Source: a virus
Lineage: Duplodnaviria > Caudoviricetes
Strand: one strand, 5' to 3'
Virus record (IMG/VR): IMGVR_UViG_3300031757_000001
Coordinates: 1 to 56,178 of that record
DNA length: 56,178 nt
Shown here piece by piece: positions 36,540 to 56,178 of the stretch. The notes under the pieces are model-generated. The model worked only from the letters and a program-made list of their open reading frames with translations, had not been told where the DNA came from and did no database searches. Positions within the stretch are counted from its first letter, which is position 1; each line of letters opens with the position of its first letter. A program made the position numbers and the translations under genes.

Positions 36540-36561
36540 TTTTAATTTTCAACCTTCAACC

Positions 36562-36594: not shown

Positions 36595-36645
36595 GTCACA
36601 TTACTACTATATGGTGTATAAAATACTAACTTAACCCATATAATT

Positions 36646-37029: not shown

Positions 37030-37592
37030 TGTACCTCGGCCAAATCGCCGAATATATTTGGAACAATGAGGTGGGCGACGGGGTCGTTGCCATACCATCG
37101 GTTATTGCTGCAGAAAAACAGAAAATAGCTGATTACCTTGAGGTTAATATGGGAGTGTTGAACGCCCTACTGAATACTGAGTTTTGCGTGTCAGACAACG
37201 AATCAACGGTTGTCCCAGGTAGCGATGGGTGGAAAAATGGGGGACAAACCAAAACGGTGTCTCCAGCTTTAAATAGGGAGGAGAGCGCAATACTGATACA
37301 GATTTACCTAAGGGACTTCTACAAGAAGAAGGCGAGGACAGTTCTTAATTCCGCAACTACAGCAGACATTGATGCGAGCGTTGGGTCGGTTTCTGACTGG
37401 ACGGAACTAAGGGAGGGGGATTCCGTAATCAAGAGAGTGGCTACTGTTGCTACCCCCGCGCAAAAGACTACCGCCTCTAAATCATTCGAGAATCTTTCTT
37501 CGAGCGCAGGAAACGAAATAAATAATCTGGTCCAAAAATATAATTTATATTTGTCTAAACCTAGGCAGGTGGTCTCGAAAGACGGAGGTTAG
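37029..37592 (+). CDS. Putative head-tail adaptor
   Basis: Position after the capsid gene; ELREGDSVIKR. Confidence 0.45.
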   Translation: MYLGQIAEYIWNNEVGDGVVAIPSVIAAEKQKIADYLEVNMGVLNALLNTEFCVSDNESTVVPGSDGWKNGGQTKTVSPALNREESAILIQIYLRDFYKKKARTVLNSATTADIDASVGSVSDWTELREGDSVIKRVATVATPAQKTTASKSFENLSSSAGNEINNLVQKYNLYLSKPRQVVSKDGG

Positions 37593-38066: not shown

Positions 38067-38659
38067 AAATAAATAAAAAAGGTTTAAATGTGGAGCTCGG
38101 CAGGCAACTTGCTCCTATCCTAAAAAGAAAAGTCCAGACTAAATTGATTCGCGTCGCAAGGGAAGTTGAGGCGATGTTAATCAAGGAATTTGACTCTCAT
38201 CCCGTAACTAAGGAAATTAAAGGCGGGGAAGGCTCGGGCAATATAAGTGGTACGCTTGGGGGTTATGGCAACTTGTTTTCATATATAGGCTTTAGTGACT
38301 CAGATAATCCAATAGAAATTGTTAGATCCTTGTTGGTTAATTCCGTGAAGGTGCAGATGTTGCCCCCGAATAGCAAGGAGATGATTCAGAGCGCAATAAT
38401 ATCCTTACCCACAAAAGCCCAGATTGAGGCTGCAACTCCGCTACCCTGGGCGGGAGGCAGAAGCTGGGTAAAGGGCATAGAGGAAGGTATTTCTGGGCTA
38501 GGGCAGTATTTAAGAAAGGAGTCTGGGAGGCACGGAAGATCTGGTGGCGGCGTGCAGGCAGAGGAAAACGTACGAGGGGGTGGATTTAGGAGAGTGGATT
38601 ATTTATCTGGGATACTTCATAGCTTAACTCAAAACATAACCGCAGCGATAAAAAGGTGA
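38063..38659 (+). CDS. Putative neck/tail-completion protein
   Basis: Position; basic, Gly-rich, 198 aa. Confidence 0.45.
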   Translation: MKINKKGLNVELGRQLAPILKRKVQTKLIRVAREVEAMLIKEFDSHPVTKEIKGGEGSGNISGTLGGYGNLFSYIGFSDSDNPIEIVRSLLVNSVKVQMLPPNSKEMIQSAIISLPTKAQIEAATPLPWAGGRSWVKGIEEGISGLGQYLRKESGRHGRSGGGVQAEENVRGGGFRRVDYLSGILHSLTQNITAAIKR

Positions 38660-39972
38660 ACCAAGAACAAGAAAAGGAAATTTTACGTAGGGCGAGAGTA
38701 AGCGATAGTTTATTCGATCTTAATAACGTCCAAAGCTTTTACCCAGGAACTAAAATAAAAAATGGAGTGGACACTGGAGAGCCTTGCTTGGTTGTGGGGG
38801 TTACAAAAAAAGTAAGGAGCGAAGATTTAAGGAATGAGGATTTAATTCCTGAGTTGATTGGGGACAATCTACAGACAGACGTAGTTGAGGAAAGCGAGCT
38901 TTCCAGGTTCGGCAATTGCGGACTGAGCGAATCTTTAGGGCAGGGCGTACCGCCCTATGGGCCTTGTGATGGGCACGATTACAACTCATCGGGGGATCCT
39001 TTTGCAAATGCACTCGGGGGAATATCAATTGGCCCAAACGATCCCTTAAGGAGGTGGAGCGGAACTTTAGGATTCATAGCGAAAGACGTAACGGATTCAA
39101 AACTCGTAGGAGTTTCAAACAATCATGTTCTCGGAGATTATGTCGATACTGATTATTCTCCGCTTGGATGTTATTTGGAAAATGGGGAACTTCTTGATGA
39201 GTTTAAGTTAAATGAGGACATGAGCCCTTTGGTTCAAAATATGATACAGACCCCTAGCGTGCCCGACTCAAGCAGAAACTCCGTAATCCTGGGGGAGGTA
39301 AAAAGAGCAATTGCGACAAAATGGGGAAGCTCCGTTCTCCCAGCAAATACTGTTGATGCGGCAATAGTGGAACTCACTGAAGATATTCATCCGATGACTG
39401 ATTTGGCGCACCTGTCTGAAAGCGCGCTAAAAGTTGCCGTGGCAAAAATAGGAGAAAGAGTCAGTAAGAGTGGGAGGACAACTGGAGTAACTGGAGTTTC
39501 GAGTTCTACTAGGATAGTTAGCACGAACTACACTGTAGCCATCGGTTCTGGTTGTGAGGACGGGCTTAAAACTAAATTTACCGATTGTATTAAATTTAAC
39601 TGGAACGCCGAAAGAAGTAATAATTGGGAGTTTTTCTCTTACGCGGGAGACTCTGGATCTGCGATAATGATGGACGAGGCTACGGGGAGTAGCTTGGTTG
39701 GGCTTCTTTTCGCTGGAACATATTTTCAAAATTCCACTAGTATGCCTAATCCTCCATATGGCACTGGGGTCGCATGTAAGATACAAAACGTATTTAGCGC
39801 TCTAAACATAGAGGCGTGGAACGGCAATGTGATTTGTGGCGCAAATTCTAGATTTGTAAAAGTAAATGGAAGGTGCTACAGAAACTCGAATACTTCTAAG
39901 CCCCTGGAGCTGATCAGTCATCAAAATCATGAAAAATATGGGACCCTAGGTGAGTGCGTGGGGGATTTGTAA
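38656..39972 (+). CDS. Trypsin/chymotrypsin-fold serine protease with N-terminal pro-like domain
   Basis: GTLG, SNNHV (His), VDAAI (Asp), KSGRTTG, GDSGS (Ser) and VGLLFAG. Confidence 0.85.
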   Translation: MNQEQEKEILRRARVSDSLFDLNNVQSFYPGTKIKNGVDTGEPCLVVGVTKKVRSEDLRNEDLIPELIGDNLQTDVVEESELSRFGNCGLSESLGQGVPPYGPCDGHDYNSSGDPFANALGGISIGPNDPLRRWSGTLGFIAKDVTDSKLVGVSNNHVLGDYVDTDYSPLGCYLENGELLDEFKLNEDMSPLVQNMIQTPSVPDSSRNSVILGEVKRAIATKWGSSVLPANTVDAAIVELTEDIHPMTDLAHLSESALKVAVAKIGERVSKSGRTTGVTGVSSSTRIVSTNYTVAIGSGCEDGLKTKFTDCIKFNWNAERSNNWEFFSYAGDSGSAIMMDEATGSSLVGLLFAGTYFQNSTSMPNPPYGTGVACKIQNVFSALNIEAWNGNVICGANSRFVKVNGRCYRNSNTSKPLELISHQNHEKYGTLGECVGDL

Positions 39973-41789: not shown

Positions 41790-42776
41790 ATGAGCGAAAA
41801 AACAAAAAACAAAGAAACAGAAACTAAAGCGGATCCGCCGAAAAAGAATGAAGGGGAGAAGGAGAAGTTGGAGAAGAAGATGCTCTATTGCTTTGACACC
41901 TCCCTGGAAGAGACTTCCGAAAAGGAGGTCGAGGTAGAGAAAGAGGTCGAGGTAGAGAAGGATGTTGAGGTTAAGCGCAGAAGGAAAAACAAAGAGACTG
42001 GCAAGATGGAAAATGTTGCGGTAATAGAAAAGCGCAAGACAAAAGAGAAGAAGCTGGTCAAGGAAACCAGGGAGGTTAGCGAGGAAAAGCCATATAGGAT
42101 TTTAATCAAAAAACCAAATAGAACGCAACTGGAAGACGGGGATATGTTTTACAGCCTCCAGCTCAATAAGTTTATTAAGCAGGGCTTAATGACCAAGGCG
42201 ATGCTATCTAAGCAGTATAGCGACCTGGGCGGAACGTTCACAAAGGAGCAGCAAGAATATTATGGAGAGATATATTCAAAATATTACCAGAAGCTCACGC
42301 AGGTGCAAAGGTTTTCGGTAAAAACAGAAGACGAGCTGTCTGAGTCCCAGAAGTCAAGGTTGGAATCTGCCATGGGAGAACTCGCCATTTTAAGGAAACA
42401 AATTACCGAATATGAGTCTTCGCAGAGCATGCTCTTCGAGCATACCGCAGACGTAAAGTCCAGAAATAAGGCCATTATGTGGTACATAGTTAATCTCTCG
42501 CACTTCATAGAGGGAGACGAAGACGAGTTCGAGGTTGTACCTTTGTTTGACGGGGCAACTTACGAACAGAAGTACGACTCCTATAGGGCAATGGAAGAGG
42601 ACGAGGATCCTTTATACATTAAGGTCATCGATAAAATAAGTTCTATAATAACTATATGGTATATGAGCGGCGTGCAGAACGCGAAGGATATTGATGAGTA
42701 TTTAGACGAAATCGACGGAGACTCAGAGGAAGAAGAGGCCCTAGAAGACGAAGAGGAATTGCTTGAGGAGGTTTAA
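41790..42776 (+). CDS. Putative tail assembly chaperone
   Basis: Position between tail tube and tape measure; charged and helical. Confidence 0.5.
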   Translation: MSEKTKNKETETKADPPKKNEGEKEKLEKKMLYCFDTSLEETSEKEVEVEKEVEVEKDVEVKRRRKNKETGKMENVAVIEKRKTKEKKLVKETREVSEEKPYRILIKKPNRTQLEDGDMFYSLQLNKFIKQGLMTKAMLSKQYSDLGGTFTKEQQEYYGEIYSKYYQKLTQVQRFSVKTEDELSESQKSRLESAMGELAILRKQITEYESSQSMLFEHTADVKSRNKAIMWYIVNLSHFIEGDEDEFEVVPLFDGATYEQKYDSYRAMEEDEDPLYIKVIDKISSIITIWYMSGVQNAKDIDEYLDEIDGDSEEEEALEDEEELLEEV

Positions 42777-42784: not shown

Positions 42785-43771
42785 ATGTCTGACGAGGATA
42801 GGCAAAGATCCGAAGCTTATCTGGATATAATAAAAGGGTACTCAAAGTGCTCTTATATAAATAGGGAGATATATGTTAAGCATTTTGGTATATTTGACCA
42901 ATCCTTGGTTGATGTAAATTACCAAGAGGTTTTCCAGTACGCCAAAAGCCAAGGTTTACCTACTGAGGCGGACAGGCTTGAGGTTTTAGAGAGGGAGGGG
43001 TTTTGGACCAAAGCGGACGAAAGGAAAATAGAGTTCAAGCGGGTGGAGATGAAAGAGCTAGAAACGAGACTCTCTAAGACAATAATCAAAAAACAAAAGG
43101 AGAAGATCCTTGCGAGTCTTGCCGAGCTAAGGGATGGCGTCCGCGAAGAAGAATCTAAAAGGGCGAAACTGCTACACGATACCTGCGAAAGCTTTGCTAG
43201 CGCAAAATCGGTTGACTATATGATTTGGCTGAGTTTTTACGAAGACGCTGAGTTTAATAAAAAGGCGTGGAGCAAAAGGGAGTTTGATGAATTATCAAGG
43301 GGAGACCTAAATGATTTGGTCTTAATGTATAATTCTTGCATGGACCGACTCTCCAATGAGGAGATGAAAAAAATCGCCATATCTTCTAATTTTACGAATT
43401 ATTTCTATTTGTGCGCGGATAATGTTTCTGAATTTTTTGGAAAAAAGATTTTGGATTTGACGTTTTTCCAAACAATGCTAGCCTCCTATGGCCGCCTTTT
43501 TAAGAATATACAAGAAAATAATTCAGATATTCCTGAGTCTGCGCTTAGTGACCCTGATGCTATGATGGATTTCGCCAAATCAAAAAACTCAGAGGGTGAA
43601 AGCGCCGCGTCTAAGGTTAGGGATTCTGAGGGGAGTTACAGTAGGGTTGGCGCAACCACGGAAGACATGATTGACGCTGGGGTAAGCGCCAAAGGGGCAA
43701 AAGATTTGCATGATATTGCTAAGGAGAAGGGTGGGGCGCTAGGTTGGGAAGATTTTGCGACAATGCGTTAA
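42785..43771 (+). CDS. Putative tail assembly chaperone
   Basis: Immediately upstream of the tape measure gene; helical. Confidence 0.5.
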   Translation: MSDEDRQRSEAYLDIIKGYSKCSYINREIYVKHFGIFDQSLVDVNYQEVFQYAKSQGLPTEADRLEVLEREGFWTKADERKIEFKRVEMKELETRLSKTIIKKQKEKILASLAELRDGVREEESKRAKLLHDTCESFASAKSVDYMIWLSFYEDAEFNKKAWSKREFDELSRGDLNDLVLMYNSCMDRLSNEEMKKIAISSNFTNYFYLCADNVSEFFGKKILDLTFFQTMLASYGRLFKNIQENNSDIPESALSDPDAMMDFAKSKNSEGESAASKVRDSEGSYSRVGATTEDMIDAGVSAKGAKDLHDIAKEKGGALGWEDFATMR

Positions 43772-43803: not shown

Positions 43804-46800
43804 ATGTCAACAGAAAACGTACAGGTTAGAGTAGGCGCTACTGGACTTGCTGAGAGCATCAGGAGGGAGGCTAATCGCGCCCAGGCGCAATTAGCAAGCA
43901 AGCCAATTAGGCTGAATTTGGACACCAAGGGCTTTAGGCAGCCATTGGGCAGGATAACTCACGATGTAAGTGAGTTCAATAAATCCATGGACGCTTCGGT
44001 TGCTCGCGTTTTGGCATTCGGGGCAGCGATGGGGGTTATAAATGCCATCACTAATTCATTAAAGGCTATGGTTAACGGCACCGTTAAGGTCGAAAAGGCC
44101 CTCAAGGATGTTAATGTCATTTTGAATTTGAACAACAATGCTCTCGCTAAATTCGGAGACCAGTTGTTTGACGTCGCGAGAAAGACTTCTCAGTCATTTG
44201 ATACTGTGTCTGAGGCTGCGGTAGAATTTGCAAGGCAAGGCCTTGGGGCTGCGGAAACCCTTAAGAGAATTAACGACGCAATGATTCTCTCTAGGCTTTC
44301 TGGGTTAAAGGCCGCGGAGTCTGTGTCGTCCCTAACTGCCGCAGTAAACAGTTATGCGAAGGCAGGAATTTCTACAACGCAGGTAATTAATCGCATGGCG
44401 AATGTCGACGCTGCATTTGCCGTTTCGTCTGCAGATCTGGCCAATGCTATACAGAGGGCGGGGGCTTCAGCTCAGGGAGCTAAAGTTGAATTCAATGAGC
44501 TTCTAGCCGCAGTGACTTCCGTACAACAACAAACAGCAAGAGGTGGAGCGGTTATAGGTAATGCGTTCAAAAGTATATTTACAAGAATGCAAAGATCTGG
44601 AGTAAGGGAAACTCTGGAAAACTTAGGGGTTGCAACAGAAAATACAAATGGGAGTCTTAGGTCAGGTATCACGGTACTAAGGGATTATGCAAAAATATAC
44701 AAAAATTTAACTGACCAACAAAAAGCCTATACCGATCAACAAATCGCTGGACTGTTCCAGATAAACAATTTAAAGGCTTTGCTCTCTGACCTTACCTCTG
44801 AGTATTCGGTTTACGATAAAGCCTTAAGGACTGCTGACTCGAGCACAAATCAAGCCATACAAAGAAATGAAGAGCTCAATAAAACCCTCAGCTCTCTTCT
44901 ATTGAGGACTGGGGCAAGTATAGACGAACTTGCAGCGAAGCTTGGTGAGCTTGGCGCAACGGAAGGTATTTCTAAATTAGTGAATATGGTAAAGGGCGTG
45001 GCGGACTTTCTCAATGACATACTGGGTACTGGAGAGGGAGAGGGTAATACTTTTGCTAAAAATTTAGTTAAGGGAATTGGGGGTTTCCTTACGGGCCCTG
45101 GGCTTGTTATTATTGGCGCGGCGCTAGCGAAGATATTTGGCCAAGTCGCGAAATTTGGGACTAGCGCATTTAAGGAAATTTTAGGCTTAAATGTCGAAGC
45201 AAAAAGACAGGAGTCCTTACAGAAAGCCATAGGGGCCACGCTTTCACAGAATGAAAAACTATACGCACAAATAATGGGACTAGCTGGGAACACCGCGCAA
45301 CAAGAGCAGGTCTTACTAAATTATATAAGACAAGAAACAAAGGAGCGCCTAGCTCAAGAGGCGATCATGAAGAGAATCGCTTCAAGTAGTGCGTTCATTG
45401 GTGTGGGCGCTGGGGAGGCGGGGTTTGTCCCCGCGGGAAAAGGGAGGGCAAGGAAAGTAGGCAAAAAGACATTAGGAATGGCCTCTGGCTTTGTTCCAAA
45501 TTTTAGAAGAAATCCCGCTCAATCTGCAGAGTATATGGGCATGGTCTCTGGCGGCTATTCTAAAAAAGCTTTAAGAAATCCCAAAATAAAGAAAACTAAA
45601 ATTCATGATGGCAAAGGGCAGTCTTTTTGGGCGCAAACAAATGGCGCAGAAAACATTAAGACCTTTTCCAATTTATCAGGAAAGAAGGCGACCATGGTGG
45701 TTCCCGAGAAACAAAGCGATGCGTACAAGGCATTTTCAAAGAAATTAAAGAAGAAAATGGCGGCAAGTGGTTTTGTTCCTAATTTTGCAAAGATGCCTAG
45801 GAACTTCCTGGGAACAAAAGCTAGCGATATCAGGAAAGACGGGGCGAACAGGATTTCAACAAAAGAGTTTGACGCAACGAACCTTGTTTCCATGCTTGTT
45901 CCCGACAAGGGGGGCTCGCATATGGTGAAAGGCGGTGTGACTATGCCAGAGGGGCATATACAAAGGGTGAGGTTTATGAAGGTTGGTCCAAATAAAGACC
46001 CAAAGGGAAGGATTAAAAGAGGGCTAGATAAAATCACTCGAATGCAATTAAACCAAGGCTCGAAGATTTTTGCAAATCTTCTGGACAGGAATATACCAAA
46101 GGGCCCAATGACTCGATTCGGTGCCTCAGAGGTGGGAACGACTGCTGGAAGGATATTTGAAAAGGCTGCAGGATCTGTTATGAAATCTCCGTCGTTCGGC
46201 CTTGATACCGCAACGTTTGATTTCATTGGTGGAGACAGGGGCAAGGGTGGAATTTTTGATTGGAAAACCCAGCTTGCAGACGCAAAAAGTTCGAACACTC
46301 CCAGTAATCGAACCTCAATGGCAAAGAAAACAATTGAGTTTGTAATGAAGGGGGCAAAGGGGTGGAGGCAGCAATACAAAGGAGATAAAGACCAGGCGGC
46401 TGTTGAAAAAATTAAAAGAGATGTCGAGAAAGAAGTGGCCAAGACGCGGGTCGGCGGGGAGGGAGCAAAAGGAAGGAAGGTAGGGGCAATCGGCGCAAGG
46501 AGGTTTGGTTGGCGTGCGTCAGGAGGTTACGTCCCTAGCTTCTTTGATATTTTCGGCGGAACATCCAATATGGGGGTGGATCATCTTGGCCCAGCTCATG
46601 GGGTGCAAAAATTTCAGGCGCCGCCATCCCGAATGGCGGCTTCAACGGGAAATAAAATGGGTAAAAATTTCTGGATGGCCATGGATGCTCTTGGGGTTAC
46701 CAACGTATCAAGAAGCTTTAATCTCACGTCTCATAGTCGGGCCGATCTAGACACTTTTAAAAACAAAACGCTTCCAAAAAATCTTCGTAGTGGTAATATA

Positions 46801-49800
46801 GGGGATATATTTGAAGCAAAGACTGCTTACGAAAGATACGGAGATAGGGATGAAAGGGGAAAGCTAAAGTCGTTAAAATTAGAAACCTTAAAAGCTCACC
46901 TCTCTCAGGCCAGTCTGCCATTTGACTCAAGAGGTCCAGGTGGGGTTGGAGAGGCAAAGGCGTTAGATATAATGAAGGGCAAGTCTGCTGCGGGAACACA
47001 GGCTGATGTCATAACTAAAAGTTTATTCTCTGACTCTGACCGAGGCTTATTTAAGGGCATTTCTGAAAAATTAACGGTTGGGAATGGAAAGTTTGGAAAG
47101 GACTGGGCAGTCGGTGCGGATGGGGCGAAAATAAATATCCCTGGCAAGCTGGCAACAGAAATGAAGGCGGCTGGATATCACGTCTCGGGCGATCAGGCAA
47201 GCAAGGCGGAGGTAAAAAGATTTGCAAAAGCCTCTTTGTTGGGGTATAGAAAAGCTTACAACCAAAGAAAGGTTCAAAATGCAGTTCAGAAGAACTCTCC
47301 AATGTTCCAGGATAAATTAAAGCTTCCTTCGGCCGTCCCTTTCCCTGCAGGAGGAAGGAGTAGCGGAAGGTTCCAGCTCGCCGCCAGAAGAGGATTAAGG
47401 GGAATGGGAGCAAGCGGCGGTTACGTTCCTAATTTTGCATTAAGGACGTCCCCCATGAAGCCTCCTTCGTATCTCGTAAAAATGGCGGAAAAAATTCACG
47501 CCGCTGGAGGGAAGGCTCAGATTATAGGAGGTGCGCCCAGGGACCACTTGCTAGGCATGGGCAAAGGGAAGCCGAAGGATTGGGATGTAGAGGTATTTGG
47601 GTTACAGGAAAAAGCCCTTCGCTCCATGTTGGGAAAAAACGTTAGCGAAGTTGGAAAAGACTTTGGGGTATTTAAAGTAAATAATAGAGGAGCCGATTAC
47701 GACTTCTCCATGCCTCGCGCCGAAACCAGCACGGGAAGGGGCCATAGGGATTTTAAAGTCAAAAAGGATCCGTTCATGTCGGAACTAGAAGCTGCCAAGC
47801 GAAGAGACCTTACTGTAAACGCTATAAGCTATAACCCTCTAACGAAGAAATTTAGCGACGCTGGTTTAGGCGGGATGAAGGACCTTGAGGCGAAGGTAAT
47901 GAGGCCGACATCCGCAAAGTTCATGGAAGATCCCTTGAGGGTGATGAGGGCCATGCAATTTGCTGGGCGTTTCGGGTTTTCGGCAGATGCAAAGCTTATA
48001 GAATACTCAAAGGCAATATCTGGTAAATTTAACGCCCTGCCCAAGGAGAGGGTACGGGACGAATGGTATAAGTGGGCCACTAAATCCAAGGATCCGTCAA
48101 AGGGGCTGGATTTCTTGGAGAAGTCTGGCTGGATGAAGCACTTCCCTGAATTGGGTAGGCTATCTGGCATTAAGCAATCCCCAAAATGGCATCCAGAGGG
48201 GAATGTTTTTGAGCATACAAAAATGGTTGTCGACCAAATGACAAAAAGGAAAGTCTGGAAAGGTTGGTCTCCCGACGAAAGGTGGAAGGCCATGCAAACC
48301 GCATTAACTCATGATTTTGGAAAATTTGGTACCACCATTAGAACCCCGAAGGGGCTGACCTCCGCTGGCCACGCCGAAAAATCAGTAGGGGACGCAGAGG
48401 CATTTTTCCAAAGAATAATGTCCAAGGGAGAAGCCAAAAGCTTAATAAAGGAAATCGGCCCTGATATTGGGGGTCATATGTACCATACAAATTTGCCCGT
48501 AGGGAATAAGGCCATTGGGAGAATGAAGCGAAAAGGCATGAATCTAGAGAGGTCCATCGCAATGGCAAAATCGGATGTCCTTGGGCGAGGGCCACAACCT
48601 AAGGGTGCTAGAGGAATCAAAGAGGTAAGACAATTTGAAGGCCAAGTCAATAAGATGGGAGTAACAAAGGCGGCAGTAAAGCGTTTGGTTACGGGAAATG
48701 ATTTAAAAAAGGCAGGGTTAATGGAGCAGGGCCCAGGGATGAAGCCAGTACTCAACGCGCTAGAAGACGCTCAGTTAAGCGGGCAATTCTCAACCACTGC
48801 AGGAGGATTAAAATACGCAAAGAGGCATCTCGGTTTGTCTGGCGGATACGTTCCAAATTTCGGATATATGGGCAAGGGCATAAGACAAGCGATCAATAGA
48901 GAGCAATCTATGTCTGGGCAAAAAGCCGTAGTCGAAAGATCCAGGTTCCTTGATGGAGGAGTGGGGGTATACAATAAAGCTCAACAAAGAAAATATGGCA
49001 GTCTTGACAGGACGATACAAAGAGATCACCTTGGCCAAGGCCAGAGAAGGTCCACCTTAGGCGAGACTGGCTCTGGAAAAGAAAGGTATGCCGCTGGAGG
49101 TTTTGTTCCTAATTTTAGGCTGAGAAATATTTTTTCAAGAAATGACCCAGCTTTTCAAAAAAGTAGAGCCACATGGAACGAAAAAACAGACTCTTATTTA
49201 GAATACATTAATCCAAGAAAGACTCAAAAGTGGGGCACTGGACCAGTAGATAAGAAAACCAGGGAAATTGCAATGGCTGTCTCTCGTCAAAAGGGAGATA
49301 TGTTTGAAATATTCAAGTCCGCAAAAAACTCCAAGTTCATGAAAGAAGGCGGGAGGTATACGACGCAACAGCTTGGCCAGCAAATGGGGAGAAAAATAAA
49401 CCCTAAATCAACTAATTTTGAAAATTTGGTAAGCAGTTTTCCTCAATTGAAATATAGGATGCAGCGTGGACTTCATACCTCTGGTACATATAGGAACGAG
49501 TCGACGGGAGGCCTTGGCCGTAGATTTAGTGGTTTAAGTGATCTACGGTCCTACGTTAACTCCTTAAGCAAGAAAGACTTTCAGGGCTCGCTTGGCAAGG
49601 GGGCGCAAATTCGAATAAATGATTTAGAGACAAAACTAATTAAGTCTACGGCTGATGGTGGAGTTTATAGTCAAATTGGGAAGAAGTCTGGCGGGTACAT
49701 TCCAAATTTTGCGGGAGCTCGGGGAGGTTCGATGCCAAGGTCCTTTGGGTTGCAGTCGGGCAAAGCGGATCGTGGGCTCGCGGCTGATGCCCATAATGCG

Positions 49801-52800
49801 GAAGTATTTAAAGCGCTAAGGAGGCGGGGTCGCGGCACAGGGATGGGAAAGCAGGAAATTGCGGAGCAGGCGGTTGGGGCATACTTAAAAGGCGGCGTTC
49901 CCGCAAGGGTGGCGGCCGATGCCGCGACGTCCCTGATTTCGGGCCAAGCCGCTGGACTTCCCATGCCAGCGTTCCTGTTGGATATGGCCTTTATGCACAC
50001 AAAGGGCCTTGCGATGATGGGCAAGAATATTTTGACGGGGAAAAAGCTAACTACGGGGCTGGCTGCACATTATGAGCGTCAATTGACCGCCAGGAGCCCG
50101 CTTGTTGGCGGAGCCTCCACCTTCGCAGGGGGGTATGTTCCTAATTTCGCCCGCGCAGACAGGTGGACTAGCAGCTGGACAAAGTCAAGGAAATCCGCCA
50201 AGAAAAAGCGCTATGGCAGTGGTTCGGCTAAACAAAACAGACAAACTGAAGCCAATGCGTTTGTGGGTCTGGGGGACAAGGTGCAAAAATTGCAAAAAAT
50301 AGGCCAGAATCTTCATTTAGACAAAATAGACGATATATTTCAAGGGTTTTTTGCTGGAGGATATGTTCCTAATTTTGCAGGCAAGTCCGTGGGTCAGCAA
50401 ATTAAGGACGCAAGAAAAGCGTTAAAAAATTTACACCCGAACGATGTGGCAGGAAGGGAGAACCTTAACGCGAAAATTCAAGAGCTTGAAGGACGAAAGA
50501 GAGGTCATAGCAATAGAAATAAGGGGACGAAGGGGAATCCGACAGGCGCTGGAAGCGGCGATAGAAACAAAGCGCCGACGGCTAGTGCTGTAGACAAACA
50601 GTCCGTCGATCCAGACGTCAAGGCAGACAGGAAAGGCAACAGGGAGATAAAAAGAAAAAGAAGGACAGCAAGAAAAAGAAAAATAAAGATGCTGAGAATG
50701 TGGCGTGGAGCCACTAAAACCGCAGGGGGAGCGCTTGAATGGGTAAAGGGGCTGGGCCCTTTCGGAACAAAGAAGGCTACAGACTTCATTGGGGATACTC
50801 GTAAGGACAGGGGAGCCTTAAGCGGGAAGTGGCTACAGAAAGGGAAGGATTTTATTGGAAGAATTAATGCGGCGTCTGCTGGAGGCAAGGAGGGGCTGCA
50901 GAAGCATGACGATCAGCGAGGGGAAGAAAGGCGCGCCAAGAAAGCAGCTCGAGAGGCAAAACGGGCGGCGGATAGAATTGAAAAAGCTGCCGCAAAGACG
51001 GCCAGAGTGCAGGCGGCGCGAGAGCTAAAACACCAGAAAAAGCTGGATAAGGGAACCAAGTCGGAAGAAAGGAAAAAAAGAAAGGGGAGGGTATCGAGGG
51101 TGCGCTCGTACAAGCGGAAGAAATTTGTAGAAAGAATGACCAAGCCGTACAAGGATTGGAAGAGAGAAAGTGCCGAAAACAAGAAAACTAAGGCAGATAG
51201 AAACGCCGCAAGAAAGGCGCAAATTGTAGAGCAAAAGAATCGGGATTTAGAGCAAAAGAGAGCGGATGACCGTGCCAGGTTAGACAAGAAGGAGAGGAAT
51301 AAAGCGGAAAGAGCTGCTGGAAAAACAAGGAGAAAACAAAGGAAAGAAAGAGTATCGAGGGTGCGCTCGTACAAGCGGAAGAAATTTATGAAAGCCTCCC
51401 TCCGTACGGGGCTTGGAGCAGGCGGAAGGATCCTCGCGGGGGCGGCCGCGGGGCTCGCGCTACCATTAGTGGGCGGGGTTGGGGTTGGCGAAAGGGCAGT
51501 GGGTGGCGCCGCGAAGGCCGTAGGCGGACTCTCGGGTGGAATAGGGAAGGCGGCAGGGAAGGCGTACGGATGGAGCGTTCAGAAGGCCAAGAAAATAGCC
51601 TATGAGGCTAAAATTGCAAAAATCGAGAAAGACATTTTAAAGGCGAAGAAAAAAGAGTTGAAGGCCGCTGCAAAAACAGTCGTGGTTACGGATCAGAAAG
51701 TTAAAACTGTAGTCCAGCAAAATAAGGCTGCGGATAAAGTTACTAAGGCTACGGTTAAAAAAGCAGCAAGGAAAACTCCTAGCGCAGAGAAGAAAGCTTT
51801 GAATAGGGAAAACATTACCGCTAAGGCGATAAATGAAGCCAATGCGAAAGCAAAGGGTTCAAAGGGCGGTCCCCCCAAGGGCCCAAAGGGGCCATCCACC
51901 CCCACGACACCTGGAATAGATCCCGAGAAGAAGATTCGTGGAGGAATGGATAAAATGGGATCGCTCTTCATGGTTCAGATGGCTGCATCTATGGCCCTTC
52001 CTTACGCGGAGCAATGGAACGAAAAGAAAAGAGATGGGTCTGAGGGGTTTGGCAAATCTACATCTCAAGCTTCAGTCAATGCCCTGGCGACCGCGCAATA
52101 CGCGATGTTTTTAGCGTTCATACCTGGAATTGGAATTGCCGCCGCAACCGCGGCGGTTGGCATAGCTGCTCTCGTGGGCTGGATAGACGGCTTGACCGAA
52201 AGTTCCGAAGAGGCTGGCAAGAGACTGCAAGAGGAAAATGCGGAAAAGGCCAAGCGGGCAGGTCGACAGTCTGAGGCAAGAACTGGATTAATGTCGGGAA
52301 TTTCCGAACTAAGAAATAGAGAGCGCGGGGGGAACGCTGAAAAAATAAGGACCGCAAGGGATAATGTATTAAGTAGGCTCGGAGGGATTGAGGATAACAA
52401 GGAGAGGCAAAAGCTTCAGAGCATGATAAATAGCGGCGCAAGCACTTCGGATATCGCAACGGAGCTCGAGAGGAGAGAAAATATTGCAAATAGAGAAGCG
52501 CAAAAGAGAAATGCATATACCCACATAGGGGAGTCCGCCTTTGCGGATAAGGATTTTGGAACGAAGATGGGCGATGGAGATAAAATTTGGATAGACAGCG
52601 CAGGCTCTTTCTCTAGCGCAATATCAAACTTAAACAAGGATGAGCTTAAGAAGTTTAGAGATGGACTAAAAGAAACTACGGGGAAAAATGCGCTGCTAAG
52701 TGATGCTTTTGAGCAAATGCGGGCTGACCAATTGGGGAACGCATCCAGCGATCAGAGGAATCTGTCGGAAAAGAATTACAAGAACCTGTCCTTGACCTCG

Positions 52801-55800
52801 GCAGATATTGATCGCACGGAGAAAGACTTAAGTAATTTAAATATGCTCACTCCTGCGGCGCAAAATGCAATAAAGGCGGCGCGGGAAGAGCGAAACGATG
52901 CCGCGCTAAAGGCCATAATGGTCTCGATGGAGCAAGGAAACGAAAGATCTCTGGACTTTAAAGCGGGGGGAGATGCGGCCACTGCGCAAGTTGGGGTCAA
53001 CAGGGCTTTCGAGGAATTTACTAACGAGCTTAAATTTAGCGAACAAATGTTTAAACAATATAACTCTATATTGAATAAACGGGCTAAACATGAGGTGGAA
53101 ATGATGAATTTAGTTGGTAACGCAGCGATAATGTTGAGTTCTAATTTTGCCAAATCGTCAATAGATATAGCCAGGAATGCTCAGGAGTTTAATATTGACT
53201 TCGATCAAAGGATGGGCTCCTTGGGGGCATTTGAGGCGAACTCCAAAAAGTTCGAAGCAAAACGCCAGGCAATGAATGCTAATTTTGCGGTAGACCAAGC
53301 TGCTGTTTCTGCGAATAGGGGGCTATCCATAGAGTCCCTGAAACAGGGGACAAATAATCAATTAAAAAGCATGGCTAGAGAATACAATCAAGGGTCGAGG
53401 AGGACTGTGTTTGATGCCATAAGCCGAGACCCAAAGAATCTCACTAAGGCAGATAAGAAAATTCAAGACGAATTTAAGCGCCAGGTACAGAGCGGAGATG
53501 TAAATATCGATAATATTCATAAAACCGTGGGTCGAGCGGTCTCTTCCGCCAAGGTAAGAGAGGTTGAAAAGGCGGTGCAGCCCAAGGATAGCCTGTCGCT
53601 CAAGGATGCGGAAGCCAGAGTGGAGAGGGCGGAATTCGAATTGAAGAAGGCGGGCAGGGGCGAAGCGATCAAGAGACTTCAGCAGTCCATCTTCAACCAG
53701 ACAGACGAGGGGATGGGCCTGATGGGCGGTGATCCGTTTTGGATGGTGCAGGATCCAGGCTTAGGGCGTCCAGAAAGGTACTTTAGCAGCTTCCAGGGAG
53801 AGAGAGGGCAACTACCATTATCAGACCAAGAGGCCCAGGCTCGTCTCGACGAGGAGCCAAGCGCCCAGGGGGCAATCGCGGAGAAAACTAGGAAGATCGT
53901 TGATGATCGAATAGCGGCGACCAAACGCGCAGAAGAGAAATATTTTCAGGACTATGGGGAACGCGTAGACCTCATGGGGCTTGATCCGACAGCGGCATAT
54001 AAAGGACCTGACATGGGCTGGAATACTTCTGATATTAAGTGGAAGAAGCGTTCGCCGTACACCGATGATTGGGTAGATCAGGCGGCAAGGGATGGTGGTA
54101 GACCCGAGCAAGTCATATTTGATCCCGTCAGTTGGCAATCTAGTATTGAGGTGCAGCGTAATACCGCGCGTGACCTTGCGAAGACTAAGTATGAGGAGCT
54201 TGAAGCAGCCAAAAAGAACCTCAAGGATCGGAAGCGAGAGAAAAAAGCCGAAGAAGCCAGAGGCCGCAAAGATGGCGTGGAGAATTTAGGCAAATATAAA
54301 GATGACTTGGCGGGTCGGAGAGAAGTTCTTGATACGGACAAAACTGGACTAGCTCCCCGCATGGCGACCCAACTAGAAAGAGGGCAGACATCTACCGCCG
54401 CAGCAATGAAGGAAGTCGGGGAAGATTTTGCGCGAGAACAGCAGAAGATAAACGTAAACGCCGCGAAACAATCCCTACAGCTGGAGCTGCAGAGAAGGAT
54501 AATGGAGCAGCAGCTTAGGCTTGAAGAGGAACAGGCGCAAAAGAACGAGGCATTTAATAGGCTCCAGTCAAGAACCTCTGGGGGAGTAACAAAGACCACC
54601 GTACTTAATAATATTGTTGCGGATGCAAATATAGCTTCCGTCTCCGATCAGGTGGAGTTGGGTGGCGGCGCGAGCCTCGGAAATCGGGCGATTGGAGCGG
54701 AAGCGAGGCAAAGCATTGCCGCCGTAACTGGGGTGTCGGAAATTTTCACGCCAGCGGATAAGCTTGCGTTATTTGATTTTAATACCAAAGCCATGGTTGA
54801 CGCCTTGAAGGCGGGAGGAGATACCAAGTCGGCGAAGTTGGTAGAGGAAGATGCAAAAAAAGTAAGAGAGCGGATCAAGGCGGGCGAGGCCAGTCCATAC
54901 GATTCGGATGCTGAAAAATTAAATTCAGTAATAAGAGAATTAAAGGCTGTAATAGAAGGAAAATTGATCGCAGCCCTGGAAAAACCCATGGAGCCGATGT
55001 TGTTCGAGTTTCCTGCCGAGATGGATGCTGCAATGAATAGGGTTTCGGAAGAGCTGAATAAGCTTAGTTCCGAGGGATTTAAATGGTACGAAAATCTTTA
55101 CAATATTGCAACTATATTAGACCAAATAGAAAAAAACTTGAGAGAGAAGGAGGCAATAGACGCTTTCAACGAGGGGAGTGATTTAACTGGATATAACACA
55201 ACTACCGATAGGCATGGCCGAAAGCGCACTAGCGCAAGAGTAGATGGAGGGGAAATCATTTGGGGAGAAAAGGGTGAAAAAGTTGCCACGACCAAGAACG
55301 ATGACTGGCTGAATACTGTCGAGGTCACAAGGGAGGCGGATGGAGGGGTTTACTATAAGAAGCGTACAGGAAGTCACAACGCTGCCACGAATCATACCAC
55401 TTGGGAGGAGGGAGAGGAAAAGTTTATCGCTAACCCAAATAAAAAGGATCTATCTCTTCCGTCCAGAGCGGATTTAACTACCGCCGAGGGTCCGAAGTGG
55501 GACTTTTGGAGAGATAGGGTTGGGGCCTTTGAGGACAGGCGGCAGGGTATTGCGGGGAGTAGAAAACCTGCACAAGCCCCGCCCGATATAGACGCCGCCA
55601 GGAAAGCCGCTCAGGCTCGCATTGATCAATTAGACGCCATAAGTGATCAAGGCAGAGGGAGTAGCCTGTTTGATATCGTGCCGCCTAAGGACTCCAGCGA
55701 GTATAAAGACCTGAAAGGCGGCGGTAATCTTTTAAACCCGATGAGGGCTGTGGGCGATCCCTATAATGGCGGGAGGGCAATGCCTGGGCTTCGTGCCTTT

Positions 55801-56178
55801 CATGATAATTTAAACGAACGGAATTCTATCCAGAATCGCATGGCAAGCAGCCAGGGCATAAGTACGGTCGAGCATTCCCTGCCAGGCAAGCTTGACTGGA
55901 GGGGCATGCCGTCAAGTGGGAAACTCGGCCCGTCGGGAAAGAATCGAAACTGGTCGATGCCTCGGGCCAGTTCTTCTGCTAATGCAAGGTGGGAGGCTAA
56001 GCAGATGGAGGATATGGGGCCACCTCCTGCTGATGTAAGGGTTGGTACAAGCGGGCCAATGGTCCCTTTTGGTGCTCCTACCGAGCTTGCCTCACGAAGG
56101 CGATGGAAAGATACAAAGCCCGAAGAGGATAAGAAGTGGCCTCTGGCCAAGTGGATGGGCCTTGATCAAGAAAGTATC
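43804..56178 (+). CDS. Giant tail tape-measure protein (TP901-type N-terminus) with embedded cargo domains; 3' end outside the window
   Basis: ATG 43804 (MSTENVQVRVG). No in-frame stop found, consistent with its absence from the stop-terminated ORF track; at least 4125 codons. TMP core AAVEFARQG, ANVDAAFAVSSADLANAI and GGAVIGNAFKSIFTR; hydrophobic segments near 51950-52190. Confidence 0.9.
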   Translation, partial: MSTENVQVRVGATGLAESIRREANRAQAQLASKPIRLNLDTKGFRQPLGRITHDVSEFNKSMDASVARVLAFGAAMGVINAITNSLKAMVNGTVKVEKALKDVNVILNLNNNALAKFGDQLFDVARKTSQSFDTVSEAAVEFARQGLGAAETLKRINDAMILSRLSGLKAAESVSSLTAAVNSYAKAGISTTQVINRMANVDAAFAVSSADLANAIQRAGASAQGAKVEFNELLAAVTSVQQQTARGGAVIGNAFKSIFTRMQRSGVRETLENLGVATENTNGSLRSGITVLRDYAKIYKNLTDQQKAYTDQQIAGLFQINNLKALLSDLTSEYSVYDKALRTADSSTNQAIQRNEELNKTLSSLLLRTGASIDELAAKLGELGATEGISKLVNMVKGVADFLNDILGTGEGEGNTFAKNLVKGIGGFLTGPGLVIIGAALAKIFGQVAKFGTSAFKEILGLNVEAKRQESLQKAIGATLSQNEKLYAQIMGLAGNTAQQEQVLLNYIRQETKERLAQEAIMKRIASSSAFIGVGAGEAGFVPAGKGRARKVGKKTLGMASGFVPNFRRNPAQSAEYMGMVSGGYSKKALRNPKIKKTKIHDGKGQSFWAQTNGAENIKTFSNLSGKKATMVVPEKQSDAYKAFSKKLKKKMAASGFVPNFAKMPRNFLGTKASDIRKDGANRISTKEFDATNLVSMLVPDKGGSHMVKGGVTMPEGHIQRVRFMKVGPNKDPKGRIKRGLDKITRMQLNQGSKIFANLLDRNIPKGPMTRFGASEVGTTAGRIFEKAAGSVMKSPSFGLDTATFDFIGGDRGKGGIFDWKTQLADAKSSNTPSNRTSMAKKTIEFVMKGAKGWRQQYKGDKDQAAVEKIKRDVEKEVAKTRVGGEGAKGRKVGAIGARRFGWRASGGYVPSFFDIFGGTSNMGVDHLGPAHGVQKFQAPPSRMAASTGNKMGKNFWMAMDALGVTNVSRSFNLTSHSRADLDTFKNKTLPKNLRSGNIGDIFEAKTAYERYGDRDERGKLKSLKLETLKAHLSQASLPFDSRGPGGVGEAKALDIMKGKSAAGTQADVITKSLFSDSDRGLFKGISEKLTVGNGKFGKDWAVGADGAKINIPGKLATEMKAAGYHVSGDQASKAEVKRFAKASLLGYRKAYNQRKVQNAVQKNSPMFQDKLKLPSAVPFPAGGRSSGRFQLAARRGLRGMGASGGYVPNFALRTSPMKPPSYLVKMAEKIHAAGGKAQIIGGAPRDHLLGMGKGKPKDWDVEVFGLQEKALRSMLGKNVSEVGKDFGVFKVNNRGADYDFSMPRAETSTGRGHRDFKVKKDPFMSELEAAKRRDLTVNAISYNPLTKKFSDAGLGGMKDLEAKVMRPTSAKFMEDPLRVMRAMQFAGRFGFSADAKLIEYSKAISGKFNALPKERVRDEWYKWATKSKDPSKGLDFLEKSGWMKHFPELGRLSGIKQSPKWHPEGNVFEHTKMVVDQMTKRKVWKGWSPDERWKAMQTALTHDFGKFGTTIRTPKGLTSAGHAEKSVGDAEAFFQRIMSKGEAKSLIKEIGPDIGGHMYHTNLPVGNKAIGRMKRKGMNLERSIAMAKSDVLGRGPQPKGARGIKEVRQFEGQVNKMGVTKAAVKRLVTGNDLKKAGLMEQGPGMKPVLNALEDAQLSGQFSTTAGGLKYAKRHLGLSGGYVPNFGYMGKGIRQAINREQSMSGQKAVVERSRFLDGGVGVYNKAQQRKYGSLDRTIQRDHLGQGQRRSTLGETGSGKERYAAGGFVPNFRLRNIFSRNDPAFQKSRATWNEKTDSYLEYINPRKTQKWGTGPVDKKTREIAMAVSRQKGDMFEIFKSAKNSKFMKEGGRYTTQQLGQQMGRKINPKSTNFENLVSSFPQLKYRMQRGLHTSGTYRNESTGGLGRRFSGLSDLRSYVNSLSKKDFQGSLGKGAQIRINDLETKLIKSTADGGVYSQIGKKSGGYIPNFAGARGGSMPRSFGLQSGKADRGLAADAHNAEVFKALRRRGRGTGMGKQEIAEQAVGAYLKGGVPARVAADAATSLISGQAAGLPMPAFLLDMAFMHTKGLAMMGKNILTGKKLTTGLAAHYERQLTARSPLVGGASTFAGGYVPNFARADRWTSSWTKSRKSAKKKRYGSGSAKQNRQTEANAFVGLGDKVQKLQKIGQNLHLDKIDDIFQGFFAGGYVPNFAGKSVGQQIKDARKALKNLHPNDVAGRENLNAKIQELEGRKRGHSNRNKGTKGNPTGAGSGDRNKAPTASAVDKQSVDPDVKADRKGNREIKRKRRTARKRKIKMLRMWRGATKTAGGALEWVKGLGPFGTKKATDFIGDTRKDRGALSGKWLQKGKDFIGRINAASAGGKEGLQKHDDQRGEERRAKKAAREAKRAADRIEKAAAKTARVQAARELKHQKKLDKGTKSEERKKRKGRVSRVRSYKRKKFVERMTKPYKDWKRESAENKKTKADRNAARKAQIVEQKNRDLEQKRADDRARLDKKERNKAERAAGKTRRKQRKERVSRVRSYKRKKFMKASLRTGLGAGGRILAGAAAGLALPLVGGVGVGERAVGGAAKAVGGLSGGIGKAAGKAYGWSVQKAKKIAYEAKIAKIEKDILKAKKKELKAAAKTVVVTDQKVKTVVQQNKAADKVTKATVKKAARKTPSAEKKALNRENITAKAINEANAKAKGSKGGPPKGPKGPSTPTTPGIDPEKKIRGGMDKMGSLFMVQMAASMALPYAEQWNEKKRDGSEGFGKSTSQASVNALATAQYAMFLAFIPGIGIAAATAAVGIAALVGWIDGLTESSEEAGKRLQEENAEKAKRAGRQSEARTGLMSGISELRNRERGGNAEKIRTARDNVLSRLGGIEDNKERQKLQSMINSGASTSDIATELERRENIANREAQKRNAYTHIGESAFADKDFGTKMGDGDKIWIDSAGSFSSAISNLNKDELKKFRDGLKETTGKNALLSDAFEQMRADQLGNASSDQRNLSEKNYKNLSLTSADIDRTEKDLSNLNMLTPAAQNAIKAAREERNDAALKAIMVSMEQGNERSLDFKAGGDAATAQVGVNRAFEEFTNELKFSEQMFKQYNSILNKRAKHEVEMMNLVGNAAIMLSSNFAKSSIDIARNAQEFNIDFDQRMGSLGAFEANSKKFEAKRQAMNANFAVDQAAVSANRGLSIESLKQGTNNQLKSMAREYNQGSRRTVFDAISRDPKNLTKADKKIQDEFKRQVQSGDVNIDNIHKTVGRAVSSAKVREVEKAVQPKDSLSLKDAEARVERAEFELKKAGRGEAIKRLQQSIFNQTDEGMGLMGGDPFWMVQDPGLGRPERYFSSFQGERGQLPLSDQEAQARLDEEPSAQGAIAEKTRKIVDDRIAATKRAEEKYFQDYGERVDLMGLDPTAAYKGPDMGWNTSDIKWKKRSPYTDDWVDQAARDGGRPEQVIFDPVSWQSSIEVQRNTARDLAKTKYEELEAAKKNLKDRKREKKAEEARGRKDGVENLGKYKDDLAGRREVLDTDKTGLAPRMATQLERGQTSTAAAMKEVGEDFAREQQKINVNAAKQSLQLELQRRIMEQQLRLEEEQAQKNEAFNRLQSRTSGGVTKTTVLNNIVADANIASVSDQVELGGGASLGNRAIGAEARQSIAAVTGVSEIFTPADKLALFDFNTKAMVDALKAGGDTKSAKLVEEDAKKVRERIKAGEASPYDSDAEKLNSVIRELKAVIEGKLIAALEKPMEPMLFEFPAEMDAAMNRVSEELNKLSSEGFKWYENLYNIATILDQIEKNLREKEAIDAFNEGSDLTGYNTTTDRHGRKRTSARVDGGEIIWGEKGEKVATTKNDDWLNTVEVTREADGGVYYKKRTGSHNAATNHTTWEEGEEKFIANPNKKDLSLPSRADLTTAEGPKWDFWRDRVGAFEDRRQGIAGSRKPAQAPPDIDAARKAAQARIDQLDAISDQGRGSSLFDIVPPKDSSEYKDLKGGGNLLNPMRAVGDPYNGGRAMPGLRAFHDNLNERNSIQNRMASSQGISTVEHSLPGKLDWRGMPSSGKLGPSGKNRNWSMPRASSSANARWEAKQMEDMGPPPADVRVGTSGPMVPFGAPTELASRRRWKDTKPEEDKKWPLAKWMGLDQESI
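45481..50376 (+). repeat. Nine in-frame peptide linkers [AS]-[SG]-G-[YF]-[VI]-P-[NS]-F within the tape-measure ORF
   Basis: At 45481, 45763, 46519, 47413, 48838, 49093, 49687, 50125 and 50353. Conserved at protein level with synonymous codon variation. Confidence 0.92.
47437..48837 (+). other. Class II tRNA nucleotidyltransferase (CCA-adding type) + HD domain embedded in the tape-measure ORF
   Basis: IGGAPRD, DWD, RRDLTVNA, EDPLRVMRAMQFAGRF, PKERVRDEW, WHPEGNVFEH, HDFGK, GHAE, SDVLGR and VTGNDL...GPGMK; 467 aa between two linkers. Confidence 0.92.
51091..51387 (+). repeat. Perfect 36-bp direct repeat (51091-51126 and 51352-51387) encoding VSRVRSYKRKKF
   Basis: GTATCGAGGGTGCGCTCGTACAAGCGGAAGAAATTT occurs twice, in frame. 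Confidence 0.9.

Follow-up and report, generated by a model that had tools for sequence, protein, structure and literature searches.

Organisation of the locus

The stretch of DNA analysed here (hereafter the window: all 56,178 nucleotides of IMG/VR record IMGVR_UViG_3300031757_000001) ends inside a very long gene whose sequence marks its product as a tail tape measure protein; the phage is tailed, marine and uncultured. The corresponding open reading frame (ORF) runs for 4125 stop-free codons and is still open at the 3′ end of the contig, which makes up the entire assembly and shows no terminal overlap. Its product begins with a tape-measure core of the TP901 type, followed by nine copies of a short peptide (the ‘joints’) that bound eight modules (s1 to s8), and then by a basic tract, two hydrophobic segments and a neutral-to-acidic C-terminal part (Table 1). 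A preliminary description of the window had put the ORF at no fewer than 4125 codons, and a protein from a separate 9-kb contig (P0006) extends it further: from residue 1977 of the window protein onward the two differ at 1 of 2149 amino acids (aa), and P0006 then adds 368 aa, with an end that resembles those of the relatives described below. Because P0006 is nearly identical and 368 aa longer, we estimate the full-length tape measure at about 4493 aa.

Table 1. Features of the tape measure gene and of its upstream neighbours (nucleotide positions in the window; residue numbers in the tape measure protein; pI, isoelectric point).
Feature	Nucleotides	Strand	Residues	Basis or remarks
Tape measure protein gene	43804..56178	+	1-4125	4125 codons; 3′ end missing, ~368 further codons judged from P0006
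TP901-type tape-measure core	43804..45480	+	1-559	PF10145, PHROG tape-measure families; hydrophobic stretches at residues 64-83 and 421-452
Degenerate half-joint AGFVPAG, end of core	45421..45441	+	540-546	Related elements in family consensus
Joint 1, ASGFVPNF	45481..45504	+	560-567	Motif match
Module s1, 86 aa, cluster F7	45505..45762	+		pI 10.4, no known family
Joint 2, ASGFVPNF	45763..45786	+	654-661	Motif match
Module s2, 244 aa, F0 module	45787..46518	+		Invariant G, E, D, K; pattern IFE..FD..[DE]xK; own AF2 fold
Joint 3, SGGYVPSF	46519..46542	+	906-913	Motif match
Module s3, 290 aa	46543..47412	+		pI 10.2, no known family
Joint 4, SGGYVPNF	47413..47436	+	1204-1211	Motif match
Module s4, 467 aa, complete class II nucleotidyltransferase (CCA-adding enzyme/poly(A) polymerase type)	47437..48837	+		PF01743, phrog_2244, PDB
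Joint 5, SGGYVPNF	48838..48861	+	1679-1686	Motif match
Module s5, 77 aa	48862..49092	+		In 5/5 close relatives, 48-81% identity
Joint 6, AGGFVPNF	49093..49116	+	1764-1771	Motif match
Module s6, 190 aa	49117..49686	+		Before s5 in P0004; after s7 homologue in P0005
Joint 7, SGGYIPNF	49687..49710	+	1962-1969	Motif match
Module s7, 138 aa	49711..50124	+		Common to window and P0005 only, 58% identity
Joint 8, AGGYVPNF	50125..50148	+	2108-2115	Motif match
Module s8, 68 aa	50149..50352	+		Bounded by joints 8 and 9
Joint 9, AGGYVPNF	50353..50376	+	2184-2191	Motif match
Basic tract	50377..51483	+	2192-2560	pI 11.3, net charge +71
Hydrophobic segment 1	51424..51489	+	2541-2562	Hydrophobicity
Hydrophobic segment 2	52081..52197	+	2760-2798	Hydrophobicity
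C-terminal neutral-to-acidic part	52294..56178	+	2831-4125, on to about 4493	Homologous to C-terminal parts of P0002-P0005
Gene of 328-aa all-helical protein, directly upstream of tape measure	42785..43771	+		Conserved in 46 loci; putative tail assembly chaperone
Second conserved upstream 328-aa gene	41790..42776	+		Homologue in 35 loci
Putative trypsin-like serine protease gene (P0008, 438 aa), tail cluster; candidate processing enzyme	38656..39972	+		phrog_20754 ‘protease’, 2.2e-25; SNNH/VDAA/GDSGS by eye

A repeated motif could in principle mislead an assembler, and the ORF might then be an assembly chimera, or a set of fused gene calls that covers several genes. The preliminary description had named a chimera, a stop or a frameshift as the findings that would overturn it. 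At least nine marine metagenome runs, drawn from separate studies, contain the window sequence (each with half or more of its sampled words), and contigs from four other marine runs (X2-X5), at least 99% alike, jointly span all nine joints (for example X2 record 2, 44843-46571; X3 record 12, 46958-47907; X3 record 13, 47932-50041; X2 record 5, 49714-51120). Because these contigs cross every joint without an indel, the chimera and frameshift readings fail. The absence of a stop over 4125 codons argues in the same direction, as do the colinearity of relatives with the window protein across residues 1-1212 and the shortness of the DNA that the joints have in common (at most about 12-21 nucleotides, with synonymous differences). 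As far as contigs can show, the reading of the ORF as several genes is already refuted, and we leave it practically no probability.

A conserved peptide at every module boundary

The nine joints are the matches to the pattern [AS][SGA]G[YF][VI]P[NS]F in the window protein, and a search of all six frames found no further copy of the motif elsewhere in the window. The pattern G[YF][VI]P[NS]F occurred in none of 2000 shuffles of the same protein. Both the number of copies and the sizes of the eight segments between them agree exactly with what had been described beforehand.

Across the family of related tape measures introduced below, 217 unique instances of the joint give the consensus A-[AS]-G-G-[YF]-[VI]-P-N-F-A, in which G and P are conserved at 100%, N at 93% and F at 88%. 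The sequences that flank it are unconserved and rich in glycine and basic residues, and in an AlphaFold2 (AF2) model of the F0 module both adjoining joints are disordered, with a predicted local distance difference test score (pLDDT) below 50. Related half-motifs also appear in the family consensus where the core ends, ahead of the first complete joint (A.GYIP and E..VPN.GG.GGSAVFN in alignment A4).

A family of jointed tape measures

A scan of 2.9 million viral contigs with back-translated GGYVPNF identified 98 stretches, 76 of them in an ORF with at least two joints and 22 in an ORF with one; about half of those 22 ORFs are tiny and probably represent chance matches. The window core is matched by 65 of the 87 ORFs of at least 300 aa, at 31-56% identity (BLAST). 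The usual build in this family comprises a core of 550-650 aa, one short module, a module of ~250 aa that we call F0 (found in 42 tape measures at the motif-scan loci), a module of 55 aa (F1) and a further 1100-1400 aa. The window tape measure is an expanded form of that build.

A profile of F0 that included its two joints was then run against 1.84 billion representative proteins and matched 686 clusters at E ≤ 1e-3 (477 at 1e-10), nearly all of them proteins of 1-4.8 kaa with the module around position 620-930. At least two joints are present in 142 of the 149 new proteins that were listed and analysed, usually two to four and at most 12. Over all loci, the 191 segments between joints group into 52 module families by single linkage. 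The linker that the preliminary description proposed to look for in homologous tape measures does recur there, with 2 to 12 joints per member, and it bounds unrelated segments as described.

F1 (..REAAAGVP..IR...NNPAGLAVTNTRDEPRG..) is highly conserved and in many members (for example L009, L029, L049 and L096) stands directly ahead of the C-terminal part as the final module; a hidden Markov model (HMM) search did not detect it in the window protein. A relationship of s5 to F1, suggested by eye, was dropped, as the F1 profile has no match there.

The family lies far from characterised phages. A nucleotide search of a phage collection with the window gave no match, and among cultured GenBank phages we found no close relative of the tape measure (tblastn identity at most 25%). 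Related loci were sought with two parts of the protein: the N-terminal 932 aa returned one locus, whose sequence stops 200 aa inside the gene, and the s5-s8 region returned two among metagenome contigs. The tape measure of locus L223 has a match to PF10145 only. Large ORFs at the positions expected for terminase, portal and capsid genes (window positions 30693-37592) have no PHROG match at E ≤ 1e-3, although the ORF at 34598-35329 has sub-threshold Pfam matches to minor capsid or cement proteins; the phage group of the window is very poorly covered by reference families. One 8-kb contig (L199, RFXU01000089.1), binned with a metagenome-assembled genome of the Flavobacteriaceae, is the only multi-joint tape measure among at least 120 genome-contig matches to the motif, and the remaining matches look like chance. 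We treat that binning as a weak hint at a host and nothing more. Because L199 stands by itself among the genome-contig matches listed, no host can be named.

Modules are exchanged at the joints

Four long relatives (P0002-P0005) share 51-61% identity with the window protein in the module zone, and they differ from it in both the content and the order of their modules. P0002 and P0003 possess the core, s1, s2, s3 and s5 and are missing s4, s6 and s7. In P0004 a homologue of s6 is placed before s5, and in P0005 the enzyme is followed by two other modules and then by s7, s6 and s5, the reverse of the order in the window. Homology between these proteins breaks off within 10 aa of a joint at 22 of 24 breakpoints in the module zone, where about 15% would be expected and where none of 20000 random placements gave as many. 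Some junctions in the relatives retain decayed joints (for example GASGGY directly abutting the start of s5). These comparisons support the view that the joint peptide marks a boundary at which modules are gained, lost and reordered, as the preliminary description had proposed for its linker.

In three independent runs, contigs also leave the window sequence at two positions and go on with other sequence. One position, at nucleotide 49712, lies directly behind joint 7, consistent with a co-circulating variant that carries another module. The other, at nucleotide 46269, lies inside module s2.

Breakpoints that coincide with joints would also be produced if the joint were mainly a site of DNA-level recombination, acting through microhomology and with no role for the peptide. 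Two nucleotide-level observations point the same way: the sequence GTTCCTAATTT recurs in five of the nine joint copies of the window, and a comparison of the window with related locus L222 gives fewer synonymous differences in joint codons than elsewhere (9/32 versus 444/829; Fisher p = 0.006), which fits recombination or conversion there. The nine copies nevertheless vary synonymously (four Gly codons, CCA/CCT, TTT/TTC and TAC/TAT), and the amino-acid motif is nearly invariant over cores that are ~40% identical and also occurs in an unrelated protein family, described below. Because synonymous sites vary among the copies while the motif is kept across such divergent cores and between non-homologous modules, we conclude that selection acts on the peptide. 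A joint that matters at the DNA level and nowhere else is already disfavoured, and we would be surprised if it proved correct.

One module is a complete nucleotidyltransferase

Module s4 had been described as a whole enzyme whose ends fall at the linkers, and the matches found agree with that description. It matches PF01743 (9.3e-15; 55.5 bits against a cut-off of 23), the PHROG family phrog_2244 ‘tRNA nucleotidyltransferase’ (8e-58) and PDB entries 3aqm and 6ibp (about 2e-15), with a poly(A) polymerase as the best PDB match. In alignments with E. coli poly(A) polymerase and CCA-adding enzymes the motifs GGxxRD..DxD, RRD and EDPxR are all in place; in the alignment to 3aqm they read GGAPRD...KDWDV in the head, with the catalytic carboxylates, and RRDLTVN and EDPLRVMRA in the neck. 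A match to PF01966 (HD) is absent from s4, the strings HPEG..H and HD being visible by eye only. Stand-alone phage homologues of s4 have 449 and 442 aa, and because the ORF of the first aligns over about positions 39-463 of the 467 (tblastn), the whole enzyme fits between two joints. We found no tRNA gene in the window, which makes host tRNA the likely substrate. Phage CCA-adding enzymes are read as agents of RNA repair, acting on tRNA ends damaged by host RNases, in one report (PMC7824862).

A CCA-type nucleotidyltransferase was also encountered in a different setting, at residues 3267-3902 of the giant metagenomic protein P0007 (4989 aa), where it contains an inserted AAA_33 kinase and is accompanied by an HD domain. 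P0007 has neither PF10145 nor the joint motif, and it may represent another kind of virion-borne RNA-repair polyprotein.

The same per-segment HMM searches left the seven other window modules without a Pfam or PHROG match. All eight are basic (pI 10.0-10.7), a property that extends to the family, where the median module pI is 9.6 and 78% of modules exceed 9. The most widespread is F0, in which a glycine, a glutamate, an aspartate and a lysine are invariant over 33 sequences (among them E137, D157 and K179). Profile comparison relates F0 to the module families F15, F9 and F43, and more weakly to F5, F26 and F31, which occur in tape measures that have no F0 proper; some form of F0 is therefore nearly universal in the family. 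The AF2 model of F0 (mean pLDDT 69) has a confident core. Foldseek searches with F0 folds against the PDB and BFVD gave nothing at E ≤ 0.001 (best 0.18 and 0.091, respectively), and a PDB profile search, Pfam searches of the 33 members and the ESM Atlas yielded no usable match. By eye, the E...D...(D/E)xK signature resembles that of PD-(D/E)xK nucleases, with a compatible order of secondary-structure elements. A similar E/D/ExK pattern noticed by eye in s3 was dropped as a sign of kinship with F0, the F0 profile missing s3 and all Atlas matches staying below 0.8.

The core and the C-terminal part

The identification of the core as a TP901-type tape measure, made beforehand from the letters, is confirmed by a match of residues 125-313 to PF10145 (PhageMin_Tail; 4.9e-24, 85.7 bits against a cut-off of 33.2) and by matches to 15 PHROG tape-measure families (best 2.4e-42). 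Downstream of the joints, the basic tract and the hydrophobic segments are also present as described (Table 1). The tract contains a 57-nucleotide direct repeat whose copies lie 261 nucleotides apart (window positions 51070-51387), and in one marine run it is shorter by 261 nucleotides (87 aa) in frame; it is thus polymorphic in length. The 1934-aa remainder that follows the modules has no Pfam or PHROG match. Its C-terminal part is 29-48% identical to the corresponding parts of P0002-P0005 and is presumed to be the helical region that sets tail length.

Neighbouring genes

Upstream of the tape measure, 25-46 related loci have a conserved gene order, which agrees with the tape-measure identity of the ORF; none of the genes in this conserved order matches a named family. 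The product of the gene directly upstream has a confidently predicted all-helical fold with weak fold matches to ‘tail assembly chaperone’ (E 0.036), and a chaperone function is probable but unproven. A complex prediction that paired this protein with a joint-flanked F0 piece returned ‘no answer’ (score 0.01), which is evidence neither for nor against an interaction. ORFs upstream and downstream of the tape measures of L222 and L223 gave no PHROG match (the window's own downstream genes lie beyond the end of the contig).

The tail cluster of the window also encodes a putative trypsin-like serine protease, P0008. Some of its 897 homologues in metagenomes carry PF13365 or PF00089; P0008 itself has no Pfam match above cut-off and no PDB sequence match. 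Its close homologues (50-68% identity) form eight clusters, all of them in the sub-lineage with giant tape measures, and P0008 is present in L003. One close homologue may share a contig with P0002, as the equal length of the contigs that encode them (42762) suggests. A search for related loci with P0008 returned none. P0008 may process the expanded tape measures of the window's sub-lineage; as a partner of the joint throughout the family it was rejected, being found only in that sub-lineage.

The motif in a second protein family

Three contigs (L082, L089 and L064) encode a protein of ~600 aa in which a proline-rich stretch is followed by a single copy of the motif. On L082 (9511-11310, plus strand) its gene lies between those of a ‘DNA ejection protein’ and a giant DarB-like protein, beside genes for an endolysin and a virion protein, in a cluster with podovirus-like ejection-protein genes. 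A 24-residue block, GIPMMAAAGGYVPNFADGGIIGYKE, is kept unchanged or nearly so in 25 of the 31 members of this family (P0009-P0039; at least 30% identity). Apart from one small ORF, we found no accessory gene common to the tape-measure and L082-type loci. The motif thus marks two unrelated protein families that are both expected to leave the virion at infection.

A proposed delivery role for the modules and its alternatives

The tape measures of this family hold a cassette of strongly basic modules, predicted to fold independently, set between the PF10145 core and a C-terminal part that would insert into membranes and determine tail length. Each module is bounded by a flexible joint of ten residues, kept by selection on the peptide, which doubles as an in-frame boundary for the duplication, loss, reordering and acquisition of modules. 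In the lineage of the window the cassette has grown to eight modules and captured a complete tRNA nucleotidyltransferase of the CCA-adding type. The modules would ride in the tail lumen alongside the tape measure, largely unfolded, and would leave the tail ahead of the DNA; at the joints they would then be released or set in position. Release would fall to a protease (P0008 being a candidate here) or to a joint-recognising host factor. Proteins made in advance, for instance the tRNA 3′-end repair enzyme, could in this way act before any phage gene is expressed. That the modules are packaged with the tape measure and released as cargo we regard as plausible, stopping short of calling it probable; cleavage at the joints and delivery of effectors to the cytoplasm are what we infer from the arrangement.

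A more general form of this proposal takes the joint to be a release signal common to the ejected proteins of a marine phage group, either cut by a conserved protease or host factor or, during assembly, by the chain itself at the invariant Asn. On this view the tape measure amounts to a programmable, in-frame array of cassettes that would inject pre-made proteins into the cytoplasm ahead of the genome, with a cargo of tRNA repair, a nuclease-like module and counter-defence parts, new cargo being captured by recombination at the joint. Taken as a whole, this form is tentative, and we think it more apt to fail than to hold.

Several observations weigh against the delivery of cargo. F0 occurs in almost every member of the family and is therefore more likely a built-in component of the tape measure than an optional passenger. 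Searches with Pfam and PHROG found no peptidase family in any of the ten pieces into which the ORF was divided, so that it has no embedded peptidase of the kind that marks the polyvalent proteins discussed below. P0008 cannot explain the joint across the family: the loci other than L003 lack it, even though the neighbouring 442-aa gene is found in 28 of them. Amino-acid identity between the window and L222 is not significantly higher in joints (32/39) than in the rest (829/1143; p = 0.27). Two of 49 representatives of module families match real Pfam families (PolyA_pol and DUF7178), and among the 16 most expanded tape measures, all of which have PF10145, one has an extra domain, a muralytic SLT. 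The designation ‘cytoplasmic effectors’ stands on a single case, because besides the CCA-type enzyme, DUF7178 and SLT no module matches a known family. Finally, three folded copies of the 52-kDa enzyme would by estimate exceed a tail lumen of about 4 nm, and unfolded storage must for that reason be assumed. (A third Pfam match among the 49 representatives, Ribosomal_L34e at 5e-4, looks spurious and was set aside.)

Several of the same observations are accommodated if the joint is never cut and is instead a structural or docking peptide: a short linear motif, present in several copies, by which the non-helical portion of the tape measure is anchored or kept in register. It could bind to the lumen of the tail tube, to the assembly chaperone, or to a factor of the host envelope or cytoplasm that draws the chain inward. 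The modules would then remain tethered to the tape measure and serve to bind DNA ends or to form a channel. Ten contiguous conserved positions within unconserved, flexible flanks fit a binding motif, and the universality of F0 and the half-motifs at the end of the core fit a structural element; basic modules are what contact with DNA or with an acidic lumen would lead one to expect. The related loci yielded no family-wide phage protease, and the lack of an accessory gene common to the tape-measure and L082-type loci points to a host or intrinsic partner. Opposed to this reading are the failure to identify any partner and the limited reach that a CCA-type enzyme would have while tethered to a membrane-inserted chain, as well as the precedent of the T5 tape measure, which is cut between functional parts (PMC10038345). 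An uncut joint is in our estimation possible but doubtful, taken together with its candidate partners and tethered modules.

Cutting could also take place too early for delivery: modules might be removed in the producing cell during tail assembly and never packaged, the fusion being an expression or assembly device (chaperone- or scaffold-like) and the s4 enzyme acting late in that cell. The protease gene within the tail cluster of this sub-lineage and the estimated bulk of the folded cargo would be explained in this way, and both lambda gpH and T5 pb2 are processed in tail morphogenesis (PMC10038345). The cut piece of the T5 protein, however, remains in the tail (PMC10038345). The modules moreover lie internally, between the core and the membrane segments, and their excision would leave two tape-measure chains; a repair enzyme that acts late would gain nothing from fusion to a tail protein. 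Early removal, with its late-acting enzyme, is in our judgement unlikely.

Release of packaged cargo at the joints thus keeps its place as the reading that we favour, in a more limited form than that of the preliminary description. Of the modular delivery vehicle proposed there, the modular build and the swapping at the joint stand, while the near-universal F0 and the absence of an embedded peptidase speak against pure cargo. The proposal that cytoplasmic effectors lie between the linkers holds for one whole enzyme that acts in the cytoplasm, s4, and finds no further known effector family among the modules.

If release of cargo is correct, an exchangeable array of modules that includes a tRNA 3′-end repair enzyme would widen the idea of what non-contractile tails deliver, and metagenomes could be searched for virion-borne early proteins by a simple rule, namely anything that lies between two joints. 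At least 52 module families, nearly all of them with no known function, would fall under it. It also becomes testable whether, and in which state, the tape measures of siphophages enter the cytoplasm, and the array could provide a ready-made design for equipping phage tails with foreign proteins.

Comparison with known systems

Tape measures set tail length, open the envelope and sometimes carry a wall-degrading domain. Among the open-access papers searched we found none that presents one as a cargo polyprotein or names the joint motif, and none that reports a joint repeated up to 12 times in a tape measure or a tRNA nucleotidyltransferase within one. Several systems are nevertheless alike in part.

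The internal proteins of T4 are small, basic and virion-borne; they are injected with the DNA after being freed by a phage protease at a short consensus, and at least one is an anti-restriction factor. They are encoded by separate genes, directed to the head by a capsid-targeting sequence and cut by the prohead protease, whereas the units in the window belong to one tail protein. In polymorphic toxins, motifs such as VENN in CdiA and PxxxxDPxGL in Rhs stand at the border between a constant delivery part and a variable cargo, forming a recombination boundary at or near the site of release. Those proteins have one motif each, are secreted by bacteria and carry toxic cargo, in contrast to the up to 12 repeats found here in a structural protein of a phage.

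The closest parallel among tape measures is T5 pb2 (and, with it, the processing of lambda gpH to H*), which likewise combines an enzymatic domain and hydrophobic segments and is cut between functional parts in morphogenesis. The cut in pb2 falls after R1127, between a hydrophobic stretch and the enzymatic domain; the piece so produced remains inside the tail and is expelled at infection (PMC10038345), which gives a precedent for processing. The T5 protein has one cut and one C-terminal muralytic domain that acts in the periplasm, whereas the window protein has nine joints and eight internal modules, one of them with a cytoplasmic substrate (tRNA).

Extracellular contractile injection systems are contractile, and their cargo consists of separate proteins with N-terminal packing signals. 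They resemble our proposal in that proteins lie in the lumen of a phage-tail-like tube beside the tape measure and are delivered to a target cell (bioRxiv 10.64898/2026.05.27.728243).

The polyvalent proteins of Iyer et al. (2017) are similar in uniting unrelated and extensively shuffled parts in a giant protein. They are very large, multi-domain proteins, predicted to be co-delivered with DNA and to have their shuffled effector domains separated on deployment; their defining features are effector domains that can be recognised and zincin-like peptidases embedded in the chain, and the head is presumed to carry them (PMC5512222). The term ‘tape measure’ has no occurrence in that text (PMC5512222). 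The several recognisable effector domains of polyvalent proteins compare with one enzymatic domain found by Pfam and PHROG in the window ORF. The chassis in the window is a tape measure and not a head-borne protein, it has no peptidase embedded in it, and a repeated linear motif stands at every one of its module boundaries.

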